DNA of 64,000 bases from a virus. The notes under the pieces are model-generated. The model was not told where the DNA came from. It saw only the letters and a list, made by a program, of their open reading frames with translations, and did no database searches. The translations under genes were made by a program, and so were the position numbers. Shown piece by piece: positions 1 through 32,101 of this stretch (positions are counted from its first letter, which is position 1; each line of letters starts with the position of its first letter). The stretch is from IMG/VR virus record IMGVR_UViG_3300028027_000047, positions 32,001 through 96,000 of that record; one strand, 5' to 3'.

Positions 1-3000
1 GATTCTTACCAAGCATTGTTGCCAGAGTTTAGCCAGATAACAGACCTTGCAGCAAAAGAAACTGCAGCAATTGTTCAGCAAGTTCAGCAAAGTAAAATAA
101 CAGTAGAACAAGCTAGAGCAAGAATTATTTCATTAAATGCAACCGTAGAAGCAATGCTTGCAGAAACAACAAGACTAACTGCAGCGGGAATGGGCAGAAC
201 AGCAAACCTAGGAACAGTACCACTAACCTCTCAGCCAGTAGTAGATCCAGTTACAGGAAAGTCTAATATGAAAGAGATGTTTCATAAAGGACCTACAAAA
301 GCAATGGTTGATAGAATCGCAAGAGCTCTTGGCGGGGTAAGAACTTCTGGTGCTGGATACAACATAGAAACAACAAAGCCAAAGTTTGCAAAAGGTGGTT
401 TTGTTCCAGGAACTGGCGACACAGATACATACCATACAACAGCTGAGCCTGGATCATTTGTAATCAATAAAGCTGCTACTGAAAAGCATCTACCATTAAT
501 AACAAATATTCTTGGAGGCAAATCTTATTATGCACAAGAAGGTGGTCAGGTCCCAGTTGTATTAACACCTGGAGAAGCAGTAATACCAGCGCACATTGCA
601 CAAAGAAATATGCCTTTAATGTACGAGCTAAACGGCGGACCAGGAAATACATCTGGGAGCGGTATGCACGAATTTGGTGGAGAAACAGCTTTTGAAAGAA
701 GTCACGTTTCTGAAGCATCTGCTGCCGATCTAAAAAGAGTACGGGCAACAAGAGGATACGCTAATTCAGTAAGTGTTGGTAGAGGAATTCCGATTTGGAT
801 GAGCAGAGATGCAAATCAACAAACTCGATCAGTCGGCAGCGGAATGACTGGACCGCAGCTAGCAAAAGAATTTAGAAAAGCAATTGCAGCAGGAAGACAC
901 CCATTTGAGCCATGGATGACTGCAGCCCAAGGGCTGGGTGGAGATCCAAGAAATAACGCTCAATTTAATAAAGTATTTAACGAAATGCTTAAAAATCTTG
1001 AAAAAGATACAAGAGTATTTGGCGGTAAAAATGGAGTAATGACATTTGAAAAATGGTTTGAAAAAGAAGTAATTGGTTCTAAATCATTTAAAGATATAAG
1101 AGTTGGAGACAGGTCTTTTAGATCAATATTTAATTCAGTGCTACAGCCTATGGGGCCAAGAGATGGAAAGCCTATCGCGGCATTAGAAACGCTTGTTAAA
1201 TCCAGAAATGGTTTAACTACAATTGAAAATTCAAAATTGGCTGGCCTTGCAAAAGGAATGCTTGGAACATTCAGCGGAAGCTCATTTAATGCAAGCAGAC
1301 AAAGACTTGCCATAATGATGTCAAGAGCATTTCTTAAAAGAAATGCTGGAGGATCTATTCCTGGAGGAACTGTAGAAAAGGGAAGATACGGATACGGTAA
1401 GCCTTTCTTTATTGGTATGCCTAAAACTATCAAACAAGTTGAAGAACAAAGAGCAAAAAGAGTTGCAATGGAAAAAGCAAACGAGGCAGTTACCAATTCT
1501 AGATTTGCAAAGACTCCAGTAACTCAATACGGAGAGATGCTATCCCCTACTTCAGGACGCAGCTTCCCTGTTCCAGGAGTTGGCGGACTCTATATGAAGG
1601 GCGATGAAAAAGTATTTGTAAAGCCAGTGTTAGACGAAAGAGCGGCAGTTGCAGAAATGAGAGCAACACAAATTGCTCGTGAGGTTCATGGATTACATGC
1701 TCCAACACAAAAAGTTGTTGTAATGAGAGACCCTACCGATCCAACTGGTAGAAGAAAGCTGTTAGCACTAGAATCTAAATTTGATCCAAAGATTGCAGCG
1801 ACAGATGCTAAGTTTACGACAGACGAATACTTTAGACAGCTAGTTGCATCAGCTTTACGTGGAGATAAAGATTTAGCAAGAGGTAATTTATCTGGAAACA
1901 TACTTTCAGACGTAGGGCCAGCTGGAGTATTCTCAGCAGCTTCTGGCCTCAGAGGATATTCAGCTGTCATGCCGTCAGTAAAAGATCAGGCTTATATAAA
2001 TCTATTAGGAAGAAAAGGCAGCGGAGCTAAGAAATTCTTTGCTGAGTCAACTCATCAAATACCAAAAGGTATGACCGCAGATGAATATCATAGCCGTATG
2101 CTTAAAGAAATTGAAAGCGCTTTGCCAAAGCTTAAGCAGACAGTCTCAAGATTTGATTTAAACCCAGAAGAAAAAGTTGTCTATGAGGCAATGATTAAAA
2201 GACTGTCTGATGCAAGAGGCGTCAATTGGAAAGAGCTTCATGGAATACACTCTGGTTTGCAGATGTCACCAGAAAAACAAATGACACCAGCGGCTATAGC
2301 AAAGATGGTAGCAGCAGATGAACTAAAGCGTAGACAAACTGGTCATTCAGCAAGTCTTTCAGACAATGCATTTAAAACTGATGCAAACGGATTTAGATTT
2401 GGCGGATTGCTTGAAGCATTAACAAAAGGCAAAGCAATGCATAAAATTGGTGCAGGATTTGGAAAAGATTCTACTGGCGGATGGGGAGTAACGTCCTTGC
2501 AAATAGGAATGGCCGAAAAGCTTTTTGGGTCTACTGGACTAACTAAGAGAACTCAAAAAATTCTATACGATAAATTTGCAGCCGAGCTTGCTAAAGAAAT
2601 GCCGTATGGATACTCAAAGAATGCACAAGGACATTTAGTAAAAGCATTAGAGCCAGACATTATGGACTCTGTAATAAGATCCGCAGCCTCATCCACTCTA
2701 TCTGCACCAGAGGGAAGAAAGGTTCTTTCTGTTATAGATAGAGAAATACTTAGAAAGAAGTTTGCAAATTGGGAATCTAAAAAAGATACACCGTTAACAG
2801 AAACTTTAAAACAGTTGGTTTTCGGAATAGAAAAAAGAGAAATGGGCGGACCAGTTAATGCAGGCCAGCCATACATTGTTGGAGAGAAGGGGCCAGAACT
2901 ATTTGTTCCAAGAAATGCTGGTGGAATAATTCCAAATGGATATAAAGCTGGAGGATCTATTCCAAATGGCTTTAGGTTTGGTGGAATAATCCCAATGCTA

Positions 3001-6000
3001 AAGCAGCTATTATTATTTTTTGGAATACAGCAAGGTGCAAATTATGCTGGCGATAAAGTTGGCGGAACCAGCGGAGATGCAATTAAACAAGTTGGAAACA
3101 TCCTTCCATACTTGGCTATGGGAAATATGATGAATGCAGGTGCAGGAAAAGGCGCAAGCGTTATGGGCGATAAATTTATAAAAGCAAGAACCCCAATGTT
3201 TGCAGTTGGATCTAATAAAGTTCTTGGTACACCACAGTTAACTAAATACGGAACAATGTTAAGCAAGCTAACTGGAAGCTCAAACCTTTTCAGCAAAGCA
3301 CTCGGAAAATCATTAAGTATATTTACACGATTTAATCTTGCACTCGGCACAGTCGCTACAGTAGGAAAGATTGCGTGGGATAGATGGCAGGCTCACAAAG
3401 AAGCCCTTAGACTAAATGCATTAGGATATGGCATGACTGCAGAAGCTGCAGAAAAAGCAGGCCTTAAGTTTACAAACTTTAATGACAAAATCAAAGAAGC
3501 GATCAATAATGCAAAGGCATTGAAAGAAAGAAATACTCTTTTATACGAAAGCATGCAAGGGTCTGGAACACCTATAGATGTAACTATTGAGGAGTATAAA
3601 AAGTTAAAAAAAGAAGTTAAAACTAATTATTCTGATCAAGTAGATTTAATTAATCAAACAGTTGATAAAGATCCAGAAAAACAAGCACAAAAACAAAGAG
3701 AGCTTGCCATAAGACTTAAAGAACAGTTAATTGCTATGGGCATGTCAGCAGAAGATGCGGCTAAAAAGATATATACGATGTACGCATTATCAGACCAGTC
3801 AGCAAATGCCGCTGCCTACACAGTTCGATCACAAGGATTTAATGACATAAAGGATACAGCGTCTGCTGCAGCATCTGCAATTGATAGTTTGACTACTGCA
3901 ATGGCAACTAACCGTAATGCCACAGAACAAGCAAATCAGCTAAATACTGCAATGATGGCTTTGTCTACGGATGTCGAGTCTAGACAAGCAAAAGCTTTAA
4001 AGGAAGCACGTAAAAAAGCAGCTAAGGATGGAACATACTTTTCAAGTGGTCAAGAAAAGCAATTAATGCTTGATCAAGAAAAAATTGCTATTGACGAAAT
4101 TAATAGACAAGTTAAAGATCAAGTTTACTTAACCAAAGAGGTCGTTGATGAGATGGCAAAAATTGACCCATCAATTAGACAAATAGTTAACGAGCAAGAA
4201 ACTGCTTTATCTTTATGGCAAAAAACAAGAATTCAGGTTAAGGGATACACGGGAGACTTAAGAGCCCTTAACGCAGAGCAGACAAATGATCTTTATAACC
4301 TTCAGATATCTTTAGGTAAAAAAGTTGAATCTGCCAACAGAGAAGGCGTATTGAAAAAGCAATATGCTGATCTAGACAGAATGTTACAGCTTCAGGCAAA
4401 ATATCAAAAGGCAGCAAGAGGACAATCTGTAGCAGATCAAATATCAGATAGAGATAAGATTGCTTCACTTCAAAAACAAATAGATGCAAACAATAAGCTT
4501 GCAGATGCAAGACTTAAGGCGCTAGATGCAGCAAAGCAAGAAGGCGATATAGGAAGAGAGATTGCAAAGAAGCAGGCAGAATATGATGCCGCACTTGCAA
4601 CTGGAAACATTGCTGGTGCTCAACAAGCAAGCCTTGATATACAAGGATACCAAAGTGAGCTTCAATATAACGCACAGAAAAAATCAATTGAAGATTCAAA
4701 TATTCTAAAGAATGTTCCACTTCAAAAACTAATTGAAGCCATACAGAGCAAGCAGCAAGGAATCTCAGACAATGCTCAATTAGCAGGAGAAAAGCTTGGG
4801 GATCTAAGTGGCAAAATTACTAATGCAGAAAGTTCTATTTCAGCAATAAATACTGCAATGCTTAATTGGCAAATTGAATTGCTAAAGCAGCCAGAAGCAA
4901 CAAGAGGCGCTTGGAAGTCAAGCGAAGCATCAAAGAAGATGCTCGCAGCAGTTGCTGACGCAGCAGAAAAAGCTGGAGTTAAACTTAATGGATTAAAAGA
5001 TCTAGACTTAGGCGCTGCAGTGGTTGCTAGCCTTGAAGGCAAGCTTGGCGCAATGAGCACTATAGATGTTAAAGGAAATGTTAGCATCTATGTCGATGGC
5101 AAAAAGTTTGAAATTGGTGGAAGAGGATCTGGAACAAAAGATGCTCCTTATGATTTAGGAAAAGCTGGTGTCGGAACAAACACGATCAGTAAAACAACTT
5201 TGGCAGATTGGTCAGGTCTTGGCGGGTTTGGTAAGTTAGGAACTAGACAAAAGGTTAAGAACATTGCAGAAGAAAGAGGAATTTTGCCTGGACAATTTTT
5301 CTCATTAACTGATAAAGATGAAAAAGTATTTGTATACAAGATGGACGACAGGGGCCAGATAATTGAAGTAACTGATCCTTACAAAAAAGCAGATGGTGGA
5401 CATATTAGGGGAGCAGGAACTGCAACATCTGATTCTATCCCAGCCTACTTATCAAATGGTGAATATGTAATTAAAGCAGACTCCGTAGCTAAGTATGGAG
5501 TAGACACATTTGATGCATTAAATGCTGGCAAGTATGCACAAGGTGGCCCTATAAATCCAACCCCTCAATCTAAGCATAATAGCTCATTTGGAACTGGCAC
5601 ATCAAATATAAATGTAAACATGCAGGGCGGAAAGCTAATGGGCCCAATAGAGGCATGGCAAGATGCTAATAAGCAGGTTATTAAAATTGAAGTTCCACCA
5701 ATCACAGCTAATTTTGCTACAAACTCTTACACATTAAATAAAGAGCAAAGACTAGAACTTCAGGCAATCGCTAAAGATCTTATTAAACATAAGCTGGCAT
5801 CAATAGTTGTTCAAGGACACACAGACTCTGTAGGTAAAGGAAAAGACAACAAGATCCTTTCACAAAATAGAGCAAATGCTATTGCAGAATATATGTCAAA
5901 GTTTGTTCCTGGTACAGCATTTACGCCAGTGGGATACGGGGAGTACAGACCTCTTGTTCCAAATACAACTGCCGAGAACAGAGCCAGAAACAGAAGAGCA

Positions 6001-9000
6001 GAATTATTCCTGCCTGATAAATACAAAACAATTTATCCAGAGTTTATTCCAGAAAAGCATAAAAACTTTTTAAGTAAAGGCAAAATAGAAGGCGGCGGAA
6101 GCATTGGTCCAAGCGGCGGAAGCATTGGTCCAAATGGTACATTAGTTTCTGGCGGATCTATGGAGTCTGTTATTGACTGGGGCAAGCTATTTAAGAAAGT
6201 TAAAAAAGCTATTGGTTTCCACACAGGCGGCGAAGTGGGTCATCGTCACGGAAGAAATCTGCCGAAGACTAAGAGTAAGTATAAGACAGTAGATCAATAC
6301 CGTGAAGAAAATGGCATTGGCTCTCCAAATGCTGTGACACCAAATGGCAACACGTCAGGTATGCAACCTGGGGATAAATGGAATAATAGACATCTAACCG
6401 AATCATTTATAAAACTAATGCTTACCAGTGCAATGCCAGGATCTTCATTGCTTAATCTCTTGCCAAAAAATATAACAAATTCTATGGTAGATCCAGCGTA
6501 CTCAATTTTAGGGCAGCCATTTGAAGAAATATTTGCAGGAAGCGGAACCAAGGGAGATTGGTTAAATGCAGGCTTAACCTTTATTCCATTTGGAAAACTT
6601 GGATCATTAGTAAAAGCAGTTCCTAAAGCACTAAAAACAATTAAGCAAATACCTACAGCAATTAAAGTTGGACAAAAATTAAAGGCTGGAAACTTTGACG
6701 ATCTAATAAATATAGGAAAGTCCACAGCAGGAAAGTCAAGGCCGTCTATAATGCAGGCAGCCGATGGATCTGTACATTACATGAAGATTATGCAGGATGT
6801 AATGGAAGGTGCATTTGAAGTAACTGGCTCTACAATAGCTAAAAGATTTAAAATGCCAAGTACCGACAACATCTTGGGCACGTGGAAGAATTTATCTGTC
6901 ATATTAAGTAAAGATTTTGCATCAAAGGGAATGAAAACACTAGAAGACGCTGGTGCGATGTTGCCACATGGATTCCTTGACATGGATTGGCTTAAAGCCA
7001 ATGCTTCAATGAAGAGCTTTGGAAAGATGAGAGCAGTTTCATCTATACTAGGCCACGGAGACATGCATCCAGGAAACCTACTGCTTAAGGGCAAAAAAAC
7101 TCTTGGAGCATTTGACTGGGGAATAATAGATAATTTAACCAACCCAGCTGAAACAGCATTAAAGGCTGGCAGCACTTTAGTTGGAAAACAAGCTTCTCAA
7201 TTTACTAAAGGATTTGCTTCTGTAAGAAAGTCAATAGCAAAGCAGGGCCCAGAAAAATTTATAGACGATATCTTAACTAAGAGCGGAATAACTGATGAGG
7301 GTCAGCTAAAGGTCCTTCGTATTGTACTTGAAAGAAATATAAAGTCATTATTAGACTTAAAGATTCCTGGCAGACTGCATAAGGGTGGAGCAGTAGGACA
7401 CAGACATGGAAGATCTGTTCCAGAAAAGAAAAATTGGTTTCAGAATTATGTTTCTAAATTAACAAAATCTCAACAGGATGCAGGAAAGATGCTCCCGTCT
7501 TTTATGAGAATGAATGGTAAAGCAGATGCTTTAGGTGCAGGGTCCATATTAAGAAATTTAGCTGGACAAGGCGAGAAAGGAGATACTTTAAATTCAATAC
7601 TTTTCCCATTAAACTTTATGGGAATGGGGTCTGCCAAATCGGCACTGGCAAAGCCGACAGCAAATGTAGCAAAACAGGCATCTTCAGTTGGTGCACCTTT
7701 AATTAGAGCGCTTAGTAAAATACCGTCTCTTGGAAAGGATCTGTTAAAGTTAGGCACCTGGAACACTTTAGGTAAAGTAAAGCCACTTCAAAGTAGTTTA
7801 TATAAAGCAATAGGCTTTAAACCAGATAGTCTAATTCGTAAGTTTAAAAATGCTTTTGACTATACATCAAAAACTGGAAAATCTTATTTTGAAGATATAA
7901 TTAATAAACCAACCCCACCGCCAAGGCGCGGCGGACCAGGTGCCCCACCAGGGCCTGTAACTGACGCCACAAGCGAGGTTGATGATTGGTTAGCAAACTT
8001 GCCTCCATCTACACTACATCCCATGCAAGCATTGGGAGAGGCCGCAGCGGCAATGAAAAATAAATTTATAAACCCAGTCATGACTCCATTAAAAAATGGA
8101 GTTGGTAAATTAACTTCAATGTTCTCAAAAGACAATATCTCACAAAAACTTTTAAAGTTTTCACCAAAAATGATATCTGATTTTCTTTACAGATACACCC
8201 CCATAGGAAGTATTCAGGCACTAAGATCAACACAAAAGATGAATATGAGCAAAACTACAGCCGACACAGGCTTAGGTCTAGACCTTTCATTAGAAGAACT
8301 TTTTAAACAAGATTTTTATCATGGAGGAAGCTTACCAGAAGACCTTTTAAATAGATTAACGCCATCTTCTAAAAATGTTTCTTTAAACGGAAACATATTT
8401 AATTTTGATTTATTTGCTACTGTAGAAAAAATAATGGCAAGAGAGTATGCAATAGGCAAAAATGCAGAAAGTGGCGGATCGTTATGGAAAACTTTATTTA
8501 GAGTCCCAGAAGACATGTCAAAGGTATGGGATATGCGAGGTGGAGCTCCTTCTCTATGGTCACAAAACAAAAAAGGTTATGCGGCTGTAGAAAAATATTT
8601 TATTGATGTTTTAAAAATGTCAAGAGAAGAAGCAAGAGAGATGCTAGCTGGAGAAAGGGTACCAGGCGTAGCAAGGCTTAGCAAAGCGTTAATAGACAGG
8701 CTATCTTTATTCCAGGGAGAACATTTAAACGAAGCATTTTCCGTAAATGGAAAAGGTGGTCCAAAATGGTTAATGGACACTATTGTTCATACTGGTGGAA
8801 AACTAACAAATTCCGACACATTCCATGCCGTTGTTGCCACTCTAGACCCAGAAAACCGTATAAAATTATTAAAAAATATATTGCCAAAAACAGAACTTAT
8901 AAAAAGCCATGGAGTTCTTGATGAATTTTTGCCTTCTACTCTTGAAAGATTTATAGAGCAGTATGCAAAATATGGAAAATCTTTTAAACCACTGCTAGAA

Positions 9001-9360
9001 GGAATCTGGCCAGCTAGACATAACTCAACAGCCGTTGCTACAGGCGGATATGTTAGTAATGGAAAAATTTCTATTCCTAAATTTGAAACTGGAATAAATA
9101 GTGTTCCTGTAGATATGCTTGCTATGCTTCATAAGAATGAAGCAGTAGTTCCTGCTAACATGAACCCCTTTAATCCAAACGCTAATAATGCTACAATGGG
9201 TGGAGCAACATATAATATTACAAATAACATTAATGGATTCGATGGGGATATAAATCAATTGTCAAATATAGTAACACAGAAGACTATCACAGCAATCAAG
9301 ACTCTTGATTCCCGCAATTCTAAAATGTCTGGCACATCAATGACAGTAGGAGTTAAATAA
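1..9360 (+). CDS. Tape measure protein (5'-partial), polyvalent, with embedded kinase, OmpA-like and ART-like domains
   Basis: Frame is open from base 1 (>3100 aa). Long Ala/Lys/Gln helical region at ~3.3-5.0 kb. TMP-type motifs GGPVNAGQPYIVGEKGPELFVP, GAGTATSDSIPAYLSNGEYVI and AMLHKNEAVVP. Lies directly upstream of Dit and tail genes. Confidence 0.85.
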   Translation, partial: DSYQALLPEFSQITDLAAKETAAIVQQVQQSKITVEQARARIISLNATVEAMLAETTRLTAAGMGRTANLGTVPLTSQPVVDPVTGKSNMKEMFHKGPTKAMVDRIARALGGVRTSGAGYNIETTKPKFAKGGFVPGTGDTDTYHTTAEPGSFVINKAATEKHLPLITNILGGKSYYAQEGGQVPVVLTPGEAVIPAHIAQRNMPLMYELNGGPGNTSGSGMHEFGGETAFERSHVSEASAADLKRVRATRGYANSVSVGRGIPIWMSRDANQQTRSVGSGMTGPQLAKEFRKAIAAGRHPFEPWMTAAQGLGGDPRNNAQFNKVFNEMLKNLEKDTRVFGGKNGVMTFEKWFEKEVIGSKSFKDIRVGDRSFRSIFNSVLQPMGPRDGKPIAALETLVKSRNGLTTIENSKLAGLAKGMLGTFSGSSFNASRQRLAIMMSRAFLKRNAGGSIPGGTVEKGRYGYGKPFFIGMPKTIKQVEEQRAKRVAMEKANEAVTNSRFAKTPVTQYGEMLSPTSGRSFPVPGVGGLYMKGDEKVFVKPVLDERAAVAEMRATQIAREVHGLHAPTQKVVVMRDPTDPTGRRKLLALESKFDPKIAATDAKFTTDEYFRQLVASALRGDKDLARGNLSGNILSDVGPAGVFSAASGLRGYSAVMPSVKDQAYINLLGRKGSGAKKFFAESTHQIPKGMTADEYHSRMLKEIESALPKLKQTVSRFDLNPEEKVVYEAMIKRLSDARGVNWKELHGIHSGLQMSPEKQMTPAAIAKMVAADELKRRQTGHSASLSDNAFKTDANGFRFGGLLEALTKGKAMHKIGAGFGKDSTGGWGVTSLQIGMAEKLFGSTGLTKRTQKILYDKFAAELAKEMPYGYSKNAQGHLVKALEPDIMDSVIRSAASSTLSAPEGRKVLSVIDREILRKKFANWESKKDTPLTETLKQLVFGIEKREMGGPVNAGQPYIVGEKGPELFVPRNAGGIIPNGYKAGGSIPNGFRFGGIIPMLKQLLLFFGIQQGANYAGDKVGGTSGDAIKQVGNILPYLAMGNMMNAGAGKGASVMGDKFIKARTPMFAVGSNKVLGTPQLTKYGTMLSKLTGSSNLFSKALGKSLSIFTRFNLALGTVATVGKIAWDRWQAHKEALRLNALGYGMTAEAAEKAGLKFTNFNDKIKEAINNAKALKERNTLLYESMQGSGTPIDVTIEEYKKLKKEVKTNYSDQVDLINQTVDKDPEKQAQKQRELAIRLKEQLIAMGMSAEDAAKKIYTMYALSDQSANAAAYTVRSQGFNDIKDTASAAASAIDSLTTAMATNRNATEQANQLNTAMMALSTDVESRQAKALKEARKKAAKDGTYFSSGQEKQLMLDQEKIAIDEINRQVKDQVYLTKEVVDEMAKIDPSIRQIVNEQETALSLWQKTRIQVKGYTGDLRALNAEQTNDLYNLQISLGKKVESANREGVLKKQYADLDRMLQLQAKYQKAARGQSVADQISDRDKIASLQKQIDANNKLADARLKALDAAKQEGDIGREIAKKQAEYDAALATGNIAGAQQASLDIQGYQSELQYNAQKKSIEDSNILKNVPLQKLIEAIQSKQQGISDNAQLAGEKLGDLSGKITNAESSISAINTAMLNWQIELLKQPEATRGAWKSSEASKKMLAAVADAAEKAGVKLNGLKDLDLGAAVVASLEGKLGAMSTIDVKGNVSIYVDGKKFEIGGRGSGTKDAPYDLGKAGVGTNTISKTTLADWSGLGGFGKLGTRQKVKNIAEERGILPGQFFSLTDKDEKVFVYKMDDRGQIIEVTDPYKKADGGHIRGAGTATSDSIPAYLSNGEYVIKADSVAKYGVDTFDALNAGKYAQGGPINPTPQSKHNSSFGTGTSNINVNMQGGKLMGPIEAWQDANKQVIKIEVPPITANFATNSYTLNKEQRLELQAIAKDLIKHKLASIVVQGHTDSVGKGKDNKILSQNRANAIAEYMSKFVPGTAFTPVGYGEYRPLVPNTTAENRARNRRAELFLPDKYKTIYPEFIPEKHKNFLSKGKIEGGGSIGPSGGSIGPNGTLVSGGSMESVIDWGKLFKKVKKAIGFHTGGEVGHRHGRNLPKTKSKYKTVDQYREENGIGSPNAVTPNGNTSGMQPGDKWNNRHLTESFIKLMLTSAMPGSSLLNLLPKNITNSMVDPAYSILGQPFEEIFAGSGTKGDWLNAGLTFIPFGKLGSLVKAVPKALKTIKQIPTAIKVGQKLKAGNFDDLINIGKSTAGKSRPSIMQAADGSVHYMKIMQDVMEGAFEVTGSTIAKRFKMPSTDNILGTWKNLSVILSKDFASKGMKTLEDAGAMLPHGFLDMDWLKANASMKSFGKMRAVSSILGHGDMHPGNLLLKGKKTLGAFDWGIIDNLTNPAETALKAGSTLVGKQASQFTKGFASVRKSIAKQGPEKFIDDILTKSGITDEGQLKVLRIVLERNIKSLLDLKIPGRLHKGGAVGHRHGRSVPEKKNWFQNYVSKLTKSQQDAGKMLPSFMRMNGKADALGAGSILRNLAGQGEKGDTLNSILFPLNFMGMGSAKSALAKPTANVAKQASSVGAPLIRALSKIPSLGKDLLKLGTWNTLGKVKPLQSSLYKAIGFKPDSLIRKFKNAFDYTSKTGKSYFEDIINKPTPPPRRGGPGAPPGPVTDATSEVDDWLANLPPSTLHPMQALGEAAAAMKNKFINPVMTPLKNGVGKLTSMFSKDNISQKLLKFSPKMISDFLYRYTPIGSIQALRSTQKMNMSKTTADTGLGLDLSLEELFKQDFYHGGSLPEDLLNRLTPSSKNVSLNGNIFNFDLFATVEKIMAREYAIGKNAESGGSLWKTLFRVPEDMSKVWDMRGGAPSLWSQNKKGYAAVEKYFIDVLKMSREEAREMLAGERVPGVARLSKALIDRLSLFQGEHLNEAFSVNGKGGPKWLMDTIVHTGGKLTNSDTFHAVVATLDPENRIKLLKNILPKTELIKSHGVLDEFLPSTLERFIEQYAKYGKSFKPLLEGIWPARHNSTAVATGGYVSNGKISIPKFETGINSVPVDMLAMLHKNEAVVPANMNPFNPNANNATMGGATYNITNNINGFDGDINQLSNIVTQKTITAIKTLDSRNSKMSGTSMTVGVK
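6092..6133 (+). repeat. Perfect 21-bp tandem duplication within the TMP
   Basis: gcggcggaagcattggtccaa x2, encoding GGSIGPS-GGSIGPN. Confidence 0.95.
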
Positions 9361-31778: not shown

Positions 31779-32101
31779 GTGAGTACCCAAATAAAGATGG
31801 CGGATACCAGGCTTGGATAACAGACCTTCAGTTGATTGCAACAGATGCTCCTTCTGGACATAAAATCATTAGAGAGTGTTTAGAGATTTCAGAGATGCTC
31901 ATAAAGAAGAATATATCATATGGCAACTCTGCGCTTGATCCAATTCGTATATTTTCCAAGGCGGATTCAACAGAACAAATTCGTGTTCGTATTGATGATA
32001 AATTAAATAGAATTCAAAATGATAAGGCGTTTCCTGGCGATAATGATATTGATGATTTAATAGGATATTTAATTCTTCTTAAAATAGCCAATAAGTCCTA
32101 G
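31775..32101 (+). CDS. DUF1599-like / nucleotide-modification-associated helical protein
   Basis: KKNISYGNS...RIDDKLNRI...DLIGYLIL. Confidence 0.65.
   Translation: MSEYPNKDGGYQAWITDLQLIATDAPSGHKIIRECLEISEMLIKKNISYGNSALDPIRIFSKADSTEQIRVRIDDKLNRIQNDKAFPGDNDIDDLIGYLILLKIANKS

Follow-up and report, generated by a model that had tools for sequence, protein, structure and literature searches.

The window analysed here is a stretch of 64,000 nt from a virus (IMG/VR record IMGVR_UViG_3300028027_000047, positions 32,001 to 96,000), and the elements in question are two short His-rich peptides, termed headers, encoded in a giant gene at its left end. A preliminary description, made from the sequence alone, had located both headers within window positions 6211–7640, in front of two different enzymes of one virion protein. 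The record is a 116,220-bp IMG/VR virus contig with direct terminal repeats. An open reading frame (ORF) walk placed the stretch 6211–7640 in frame 1 of the + strand, inside one ORF that extends beyond the window on the left. This ORF starts 2319 nt upstream of the window and occupies window positions 1–9360 (genome 29682–41360, + strand). Its product (L003 or P0003, 3892 aa) is numbered such that a residue of P0003 equals the residue of the window ORF plus 773.

P0003 was assigned as a tape measure protein (TMP) because of a domain match, its identity to annotated TMPs and a siphovirus tail-gene synteny. Residues 239–438 matched PF10145 (PhageMin_Tail; E=3.2e-27; 96 bits, cut-off 33), and the N-terminus shared 32–35 % identity over ~660 residues with annotated TMPs of Streptomyces and Gordonia phages (tblastn, E=1e-80). 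The gene sits between those for the major tail protein and chaperone and those for distal and minor tail proteins. Genes for portal, capsid, adaptor and an Ig-domain tail protein, with genes of chaperone size, lie upstream, and genes for minor tail, tail and tail spike proteins lie downstream, an order that is the same as in Streptomyces phage Wofford. The virion protein of the preliminary description is thus the TMP, and it is ~1800 residues longer than that of Wofford (2084 residues).

The two His-rich headers

Each header consists of 16 residues, of which 11 are identical between the two. Header 1 (FHTGGEVGHRHGRNLP; F-H-T-GG-E-V-GHRHGR-N-L-P, P0003 2846–2861) is encoded at 6217–6264 and header 2 (LHKGGAVGHRHGRSVP; L-H-K-GG-A-V-GHRHGR-S-V-P, P0003 3232–3247) at 7375–7422, both in frame 1 of the + strand and at the places first reported. 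With residues 2836–3000 as the query and the rest of the protein masked for this segment, BLAST found the header region again within P0003 (E=6e-7). Codons differed at nine of the 11 shared residues and were the same at two, with a nucleotide identity of 32/57. The header DNA has diverged while the peptide was kept, as the earlier reading of the synonymous sites had held. Such divergence of the two copies would also guard against deletion by recombination between them.

IMG/VR was scanned with an exact degenerate DNA pattern for GG-x-V-G-H-R-H-G-R, which gave 46 matches, 38 of them in context and eight of them out-of-frame chance matches in GC-rich DNA. The 38 in-context headers lie in ~33 giant ORFs of uncultured viral contigs, with ORF lengths of up to 3,726 residues. 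An alignment of 25 distinct copies showed a sharply bounded invariant block with unalignable flanks, and several positions outside the search pattern were also shared (an aromatic residue at −3, an invariant His at −2, Asn or Ser at +10 and an invariant Pro at +12). The sequences behind the strict header in viral contigs form at least 10 different clusters; the header is neither unique to this genome nor always followed by the same domain.

The same pattern gave 11 matches in 185,579 species genomes, all of them out of context in GC-rich DNA, with no prophage copy. Header 2 together with the leader behind it had no match in 50,697 GenBank phage records (tblastn), and megablast of the region gave no match. 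The header, found in viral contigs and without matches in species genomes and GenBank phages, belongs to a lineage of uncultured phages.

Since the motifs are short, with many Gly, His and Arg residues, the repeat might be a chance or low-complexity likeness, or the remnant of a recent internal duplication without function. This explanation is extremely improbable and was rejected, given the E-value obtained within P0003, the 38 in-context copies with their conserved unsearched positions, the divergence at synonymous sites and the confinement of the sharing to a 16-residue block rather than its surroundings.

Leaders, junctions and mosaic exchange

Both headers are followed by a leader with a conserved core. 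Leader A begins with a variable spacer of low complexity (6265–6519, + strand) and ends in core A (6520–6606, + strand; FEEIFAGSGTKGDW...FIPFGKLGS). Leader B (7423–7635, + strand) comprises a helix region ('KKNWFQNYVSKLTKS') and a core (ALG..ILRNLAGQGEKGD..LFPLNFMGMGS, ~7528–7635), and is conserved in giant proteins of many clusters. The preliminary description had noted that the segments at ~6535 and ~7561 (AGSGTKGDW...FIPFGK and AGQGEKGDT...FPLNF) are similar. Pairwise BLAST of these segments was not significant. A hidden Markov model (HMM) built from leader B only and iterated on 173 related proteins recruited core A at iteration 4 (independent E-value, i-E, 1e-6) and at convergence (i-E 1e-13), when it contained 44 cores in 40 proteins, so that the similarity is upheld. 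The consensus of this second motif is AGxGxKGDxLxAxLxxPxxF, and at least 13 BLAST families lie behind the core motif.

Leader B is conserved behind several junction variants. In other giant TMPs the same core also follows the junctions GGEVKK, GGLASRPKYG, GHKH (GHKHPH...) and APHxMGM (APHxMGMSSFG). GHRHGR, the form first described, is only one of several forms of the junction.

A mosaic pattern was detected at the junction. Four near relatives (P0004, L005, L026 and L034) shared 93–97 % identity with P0003 over the 250 residues ahead of header 2 and 23–61 % behind it. In L034, DNA identity ran as far as the HKGGAV codons; in L005 it extended to HKGGAVGH. Both breakpoints fall inside header 2. 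Leader A was 38–95 % identical to its counterparts in relatives, with the adjoining kinase domain at 95–98 %; in four relatives the spacer behind header 1 had been exchanged (38–47 % identity) while the kinase after it stayed at 95–98 %. With identity breaking at header 2 and leader A exchanged without the kinase, recombination borders are placed at the junction and at the beginning of the cargo domain, as in polymorphic toxins. In such toxins a variable module is exchanged at a conserved junction, and the break at the header and the at least 10 downstream clusters correspond to this. The earlier proposal of a constant header and a variable toxin, stacked in tandem, holds for the header, the variable modules and their tandem arrangement; the label 'toxin' is unsupported.

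The preliminary description had also taken the FIPFGK helix for a pre-toxin linker. In its full form this explanation would make the leader a known pre-toxin family (PT-TG or similar) and the cassettes true polymorphic toxins with an ADP-ribosyltransferase (ART) tip derived from bacteria. The segment 'GDW...FIPFGK' resembles TG-type linkers by eye, and the logic of a constant and a variable part meeting at a junction is that of CdiA or Rhs toxins. However, PT-TG (PF14449) matched nothing across the genome at E≤10, whereas it did match five of 14 control genomes; a first-look filter of limited sensitivity gave no candidate. In Pfam, neither leader was matched by any family. Polymorphic toxins are also expected to have an immunity gene directly downstream, whereas no small immunity-like gene follows the TMP gene and the next genes encode tail proteins. 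An immunity gene would be needless for a lytic phage.

The His-rich header is a specialised form of a more general TMP junction, phi-x-x-GG-x-[VI], of which P0003 carries ~14 copies at module borders; relatives do likewise. The commonest general form is GG-x-V-x-G-x-GTxTSDSIPAxLSxGExV...YG...FDALN. A canonical module of this kind (KADGG..GAGTATSDSIPAYLSNGEYV..KYGVDTFDALN..YAQGG; 5386–5562, + strand) matched PHROG TMP families 3547 and 25241, and the common GG module matched TMP chains in the PDB from mycobacteriophage Douge (8zdo_S, twice) and Pseudomonas phage JBD30 (8rk3_A).

A cluster of general GG junctions lies at 2830–2997 on the + strand (REMGG...GEKGPELFVPRNAGG..YKAGG..FRFGG). It contains four junctions (REMGG, PRNAGG, YKAGG and FRFGG) and precedes a stretch that is more hydrophobic than any other in the C-terminal two thirds of the protein, with a Kyte–Doolittle (KD) peak at P0003 1764–1782. 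BLAST aligned T5 pb2 residues 1070–1169 with P0003 1701–1800 in two ways (E=7e-4 each), with T5 R1127 on either R1719 or R1744. The T5 sequence FVPR/AEGGMMYPG..GEHGTEVVTP, where the stroke marks a cut, aligns with REMGG..GEKGPELFVP and with FVPRNAGG of P0003. In tail assembly, T5 pb2 undergoes cleavage between R1127 and AEGG; the cut separates an enzymatic C-terminal piece, which remains in the tip of the tail and is the first part to be expelled (PMC10038345). The general GG junction is thus known to be processed in one phage, T5. Because window 2830–2997 aligns with the cleavage-site region of pb2, a cut of the T5 type may split P0003 in the middle.

Cargo domains of P0003 and its relatives

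Cargo 1 (6607–7374, + strand; P0003 2976–3231), the domain behind header 1 and leader A, resembles protein kinases and is also referred to as K2. Weak HMM matches were to kinase families only: ABC1, APH, HipA_2 and PI3_PI4 in Pfam, and UbiB, RisK1 and SrkA in NCBIfam. No kinase family HMM exceeded its curated cut-off. Because the matches to ABC1 (E=1.7e-4, 21.2 bits against 22.9), APH (E=1.2e-3, 19.1 against 23.2) and UbiB (E=4e-5, far under the equivalog cut-off) all fell below threshold, cargo 1 is assigned at the level of the protein-kinase-like superfamily only and to no named family. An AlphaFold2 (AF2) model was of moderate confidence (predicted local distance difference test, pLDDT, 62; predicted template modelling score, pTM, 0.65), with low pLDDT in the catalytic loop. 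In a Foldseek search with this model the top 46 matches were all kinases (best E=2.6e-5, template modelling score, TM, ~0.5), led by Helicobacter pylori CtkA, PI3K-gamma, RIPK2, HipA and RIO.

The expected motifs of cargo 1 (Lys, HGDxHxGN and D-W-G) are invariant in a 47 %-identical homologue, including the ATP-binding Lys K60, D152 and N157 of the catalytic loop and the Mg-binding D170 of the DFG equivalent (domain numbering). The catalytic loop aligns with HGDAHPGN...DFG of the ABC1 protein 7cy2 and with HRD..N...DFG of a Ser/Thr kinase. The model thus supports a bilobal kinase fold of the HipA/CtkA/PI3K-like type for cargo 1, in agreement with the kinase first proposed there. A stand-alone form of this kinase was not found among proteins of 140–448 aa. 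A second, different kinase-like domain (K1; VFVKPV Lys, GDKDLARGN loop) was observed at window 1567–2361. In relatives P0074 and P0077, K1 has a full leader-B core ahead of it; in P0003 this leader is degenerate (GG..GKPFFIGMP).

Cargo 2 (7636–9033, + strand; P0003 3319–3784) consists of a Lys/Pro-rich linker and a conserved domain of ~250 aa (core ~8257–9006), recognised from its homologues and their invariant residues. The homologues form ~8 clusters at 50 % identity, and the invariants in their alignment include H107, F138, T140, K143, Y149 and E218. No match to cargo 2 was found in Pfam, PHROGs, NCBIfam, the PDB (sequence and profile) or the ESM Atlas; a PDB profile search with the cargo 2 alignment recovered only the GG module of TMPs (Douge, JBD30) and left the cargo unmatched. 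The AF2 model, built on a 10-row alignment, was unusable (pLDDT 35.6).

An ART-like domain had been proposed behind header 2, and neither a search nor a fold supports it. The spacings of H107, F138-x-T140, Y149 and E218 are 31/11/69, a comparison made without statistics, and the first Tyr of the H-Y-E pattern is replaced by Phe. The corresponding spacings are 30/11/72 in ExoA and 33/11/83 in diphtheria toxin (DT); the likeness of cargo 2 to the ExoA/DT/PARP triad is a reading rather than a test. A comparison of cargo 2 with two other H-G-S/aromatic-x-T domains of relatives using hhalign was not significant (best P=0.009). An ART identity (H-Y-E clade) was thus not confirmed for cargo 2, of which the motif spacing fits and no family or fold matches.

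The cargos of relatives are diverse and include a second type of kinase. When 18 cassettes of relatives were searched in Pfam and PHROGs the result was almost blank, with only weak hints of GNAT and HEXXH peptidase domains. Inspection by eye suggested R-S-E ARTs, a CHAP/NlpC-like domain and GNAT plus HEXXH domains in P0114, P0071/P0136, P0102 and L020, with faint support from the libraries. The ART-like patterns seen in relatives are YRG..STS..ELE and YRG..SFSS..SEMES. For P0114, whose cargo reads by eye as an R-S-E ART, the NCBIfam ADP-ribosyltransferase match was faint (E=0.074), and PDB sequence searches with the relatives that carry ART-looking cargos (P0114, P0084) gave nothing meaningful. 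The P0114 cargo is one point in favour of a bacterial toxin with an ART tip behind a known pre-toxin linker; with no ART match for cargo 2 in libraries or the PDB, and with the PT-TG and hhalign results above, that explanation is very unlikely. Because most cargos are without a family, 'effector' is a term drawn from the kinase, from the weak GNAT, HEXXH and ART hints and from the architecture. A Trp/Pro-rich mini-module of 127 residues (..W.PY.EDMP.YWSDG.PSGSPYT.RWG.LRYGP.KGKDIWGGTEIPGL.F.GKI..RSDYWHQ; L011:1259-1639 and nine other loci) was observed behind the strict header in ten contigs, and is followed there by a further junction.

Other parts of P0003 frame these cassettes. Within the TMP, an OmpA-like peptidoglycan-binding domain occupies 5713–5994 on the + strand (PF00691, E=1e-18, above cut-off), and a Gly-rich linker (GGGSIGPSGGSIGPNG) follows it directly ahead of header 1. 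The C-terminal end (GG...IPKFETGIN..P.DMLA.LHKNEAVVP...; 9034–9357, + strand) is the most widely conserved part of the protein: its 108 aa (query 940–1047) are matched in more than 100 clusters, and the Wofford TMP ends alike. TMP C-termini are located in the hub in Douge, JBD30 and T5 (PMC13033339, PMC11445458, PMC10038345), and by analogy the C-terminal end of P0003 may anchor it in the baseplate hub. An insert between GG junctions at window 640–1380 (P0003 ~985–1230) is conserved and had no match in Pfam or NCBIfam. The genome as a whole (G000; 116 kb, direct terminal repeats) has 38 % G+C. Its structural-gene order and TMP core resemble those of Stanwilliamsviridae (Streptomyces phages of ~130 kb), although this G+C content is far below what a Streptomyces host would fit.

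Proposed exchangeable cargo in a phage tail

The two headers probably open two cargo cassettes that can be exchanged and that lie within the C-terminal third of a giant TMP. The architecture, the conservation of junction and core, the diversity downstream, the breakpoints inside the junction and the kinase fold of cargo 1 are the direct results on which this draws. Each cassette consists of a junction (aromatic-H-x-GG-x-V, then GHRHGR-N/S-x-P), a variable spacer of 40–130 residues, a conserved amphipathic core (~LG..LLRK.AGxGxKGDxLxAALxPLxFxGxG) and a cargo domain, with the universal TMP C-terminal end behind the last cassette.

On infection, the TMPs that fill the tail tube are the first to be expelled (PMC13033339, PMC11445458, PMC10038345). 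As the TMP exits the tail first, the cargos could reach the envelope or the cytoplasm of the host before the DNA, in the manner of polyvalent proteins. Each cargo may be set free by processing at the junction, whose general form (R-x-x-GG...GExGxE) is homologous to the T5 pb2 site, and the three invariant histidines (H-x-GG-x-V-G-H-R-H) may bind metal or be recognised by a protease. A prediction of a complex of three copies of the header region with Zn scored 0.02, which counts neither for nor against. The amphipathic core could aid membrane association or translocation of the freed cargo. Kinase activity requires ATP, which is found in the cytoplasm, and the core is proposed as a translocation aid because of this need and because the leader of the effector Tde1 acts in that way. 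The N-terminal glycine-zipper leader of Tde1, a T6SS (type VI secretion system) effector, drives translocation, and similar sequence occurs in TMP C-terminal regions (PMC10240207).

In its strongest form, this proposal makes the TMP a multi-warhead injection device of an uncultured siphophage lineage, in which each cargo has its own cut (or metal-clasping) junction and translocation core, is released to cross the inner membrane and is traded between phages at the label. This strongest form is less likely than not. If true, phages would have an equivalent of polymorphic toxin systems, and the label could serve as a transferable tag with which foreign proteins are loaded into phage tails.

Several points weigh against these proposals. 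Most cargo domains, in P0003 and in relatives, are without a recognisable family. The header set was collected with the pattern GG.VGHRHG[RS], such that the invariance of those residues is partly by construction, and some strict headers lead to the 127-aa Trp-rich module and another junction, not to a core and an enzyme. The leader cores are too weakly hydrophobic for a transmembrane helix (KD19 ~1.0), with core A staying under transmembrane level (maximum KD19 1.04). Because the header residue at the position equivalent to the T5 cut (−3) is aromatic and not Arg, the T5 analogy applies to the general GG junction and not to the His-rich variant itself. Globular domains of 250–400 aa would have to fit, or unfold, within the lumen of the tail tube; cleavage, metal binding, ejection and host entry of P0003 are steps that we infer.

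Header and core might instead be purely structural and uncut, serving as points of register or trimerisation (for example an axial His/metal clasp), as contacts with tube or chaperone, or as hinges, with the enzymes active in the envelope while the TMP stays intact. Trimers with an HxH motif could make an axial site, as in phage spike tips, and such a site is conceivable in a TMP trimer. His, Met or Asn also occur in other variants behind the GG (GHKH, HKHP, APHxMGM, GNKNKN), the OmpA-like domain suggests action in the envelope, and the muralytic domains of the Wofford TMP sit between GG modules without known release. The peptidoglycan hydrolase domains of other TMPs are a model for enzymes that act in this way. 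TMPs are trimers along the tail tube with the C-terminus in the baseplate hub (PMC13033339, PMC11445458), and in JBD30 a putative axial ion is held by Met residues (PMC11445458). However, the homologous general junction is cleaved in T5, and the periplasm offers little use for a kinase that needs ATP. A structural role also leaves the coincidence of breakpoints and module borders with the motif unexplained, though a conserved peptide favours exchange there anyway. A purely structural role is on balance rather unlikely.

The nearest precedent for a junction is T5 pb2 (Linares et al. 2023, PMC10038345; Boulanger et al. 2008). In this TMP the C-terminal piece is enzymatic and lies behind an R-x-x-GG...GExGxE junction whose sequence is homologous to P0003 1717–1750. 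In contrast to P0003, which has ~14 junctions and several large non-muralytic domains (two of them kinase-like), pb2 has one junction and one small muralytic piece, and lacks both the His-rich GHRHGR variant and the AGxGxKGD core. TMPs with cell-wall enzymes (Wofford gp60; mycobacteriophage and staphylococcal TMPs) share with P0003 the N-terminal core, the C-terminal ending, GG modules flanking the enzymes and the syntenic gene order. Wofford gp60 (L069:9142-15396) has a His-bearing GG junction (..SHHEGGLIGG..) and a Gly/Met-rich hydrophobic stretch, then transglycosylase-like and M23-like domains, and looks like a simpler version of the same junction–leader–enzyme grammar. These two domains in a protein of 2084 aa contrast with the kinases, OmpA-like and other domains, His-rich header and core of the 3892-aa P0003. 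Tde1 (PMC10240207) has a similar arrangement, in that a short N-terminal leader, placed before a toxic enzyme, allows it to enter the target cell. The likeness is one of arrangement, the P0003 core being amphipathic with a G-x-G-x-G tail and the Tde1 leader a GxxxG repeat over a transmembrane segment.

Bacterial polymorphic toxins, reportedly described by Zhang et al. in 2012 (CdiA VENN, Rhs and PT-TG pre-toxin modules), resemble P0003 in having a constant part, a short conserved junction and a variable tip that is swapped by recombination there, and processing at the junction is common. P0003 differs in having tandem cassettes within a structural phage protein and no immunity gene. Its junction and leader lie outside PT-TG and its last module is followed by a conserved structural C-terminus, unlike toxin tips, which end the protein.

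Polyvalent proteins (Iyer, Burroughs, Anand, de Souza and Aravind 2017) are likewise multidomain and virion-borne, with shuffled enzymes and presumed injection. They are giant proteins in which kinases, ARTs, GNATs and metallopeptidases are strung together, with domain shuffling and presumed co-injection with DNA, and are defined by two to fifteen conflict-type catalytic domains in one phage or plasmid polypeptide (PMC5512222). P0003 has two kinase-like domains, one OmpA-like domain and other globular inserts, and its delivery would follow from TMP biology. The polyvalent carriers of that survey are head or internal proteins and relaxase-linked proteins, whereas P0003 is a TMP; TMPs are unmentioned in it, as is any junction header or leader core ahead of each domain (PMC5512222). 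A search of the open-access literature for TMPs that carry kinase or ART domains turned up no comparable case.

If this reading is true, enzymatic cargo that can be exchanged enters the host in the lumen of the tail tube, and not in the capsid alone, and its organisation depends on a leader and a short junction peptide that can be recognised. Junction and leader would provide a search handle for phage effectors, most cargos here being without a family, and would explain, in a way open to testing, why some TMPs far exceed the length that the tail calls for. Should they suffice for loading and release, they would also allow protein delivery by phage tails to be studied in laboratory strains. The long-known, unexplained cleavage of the T5 and lambda TMPs would be linked to a conserved sequence element. 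The logic of polyvalent or polymorphic cargo is already known; here it is placed inside a TMP.

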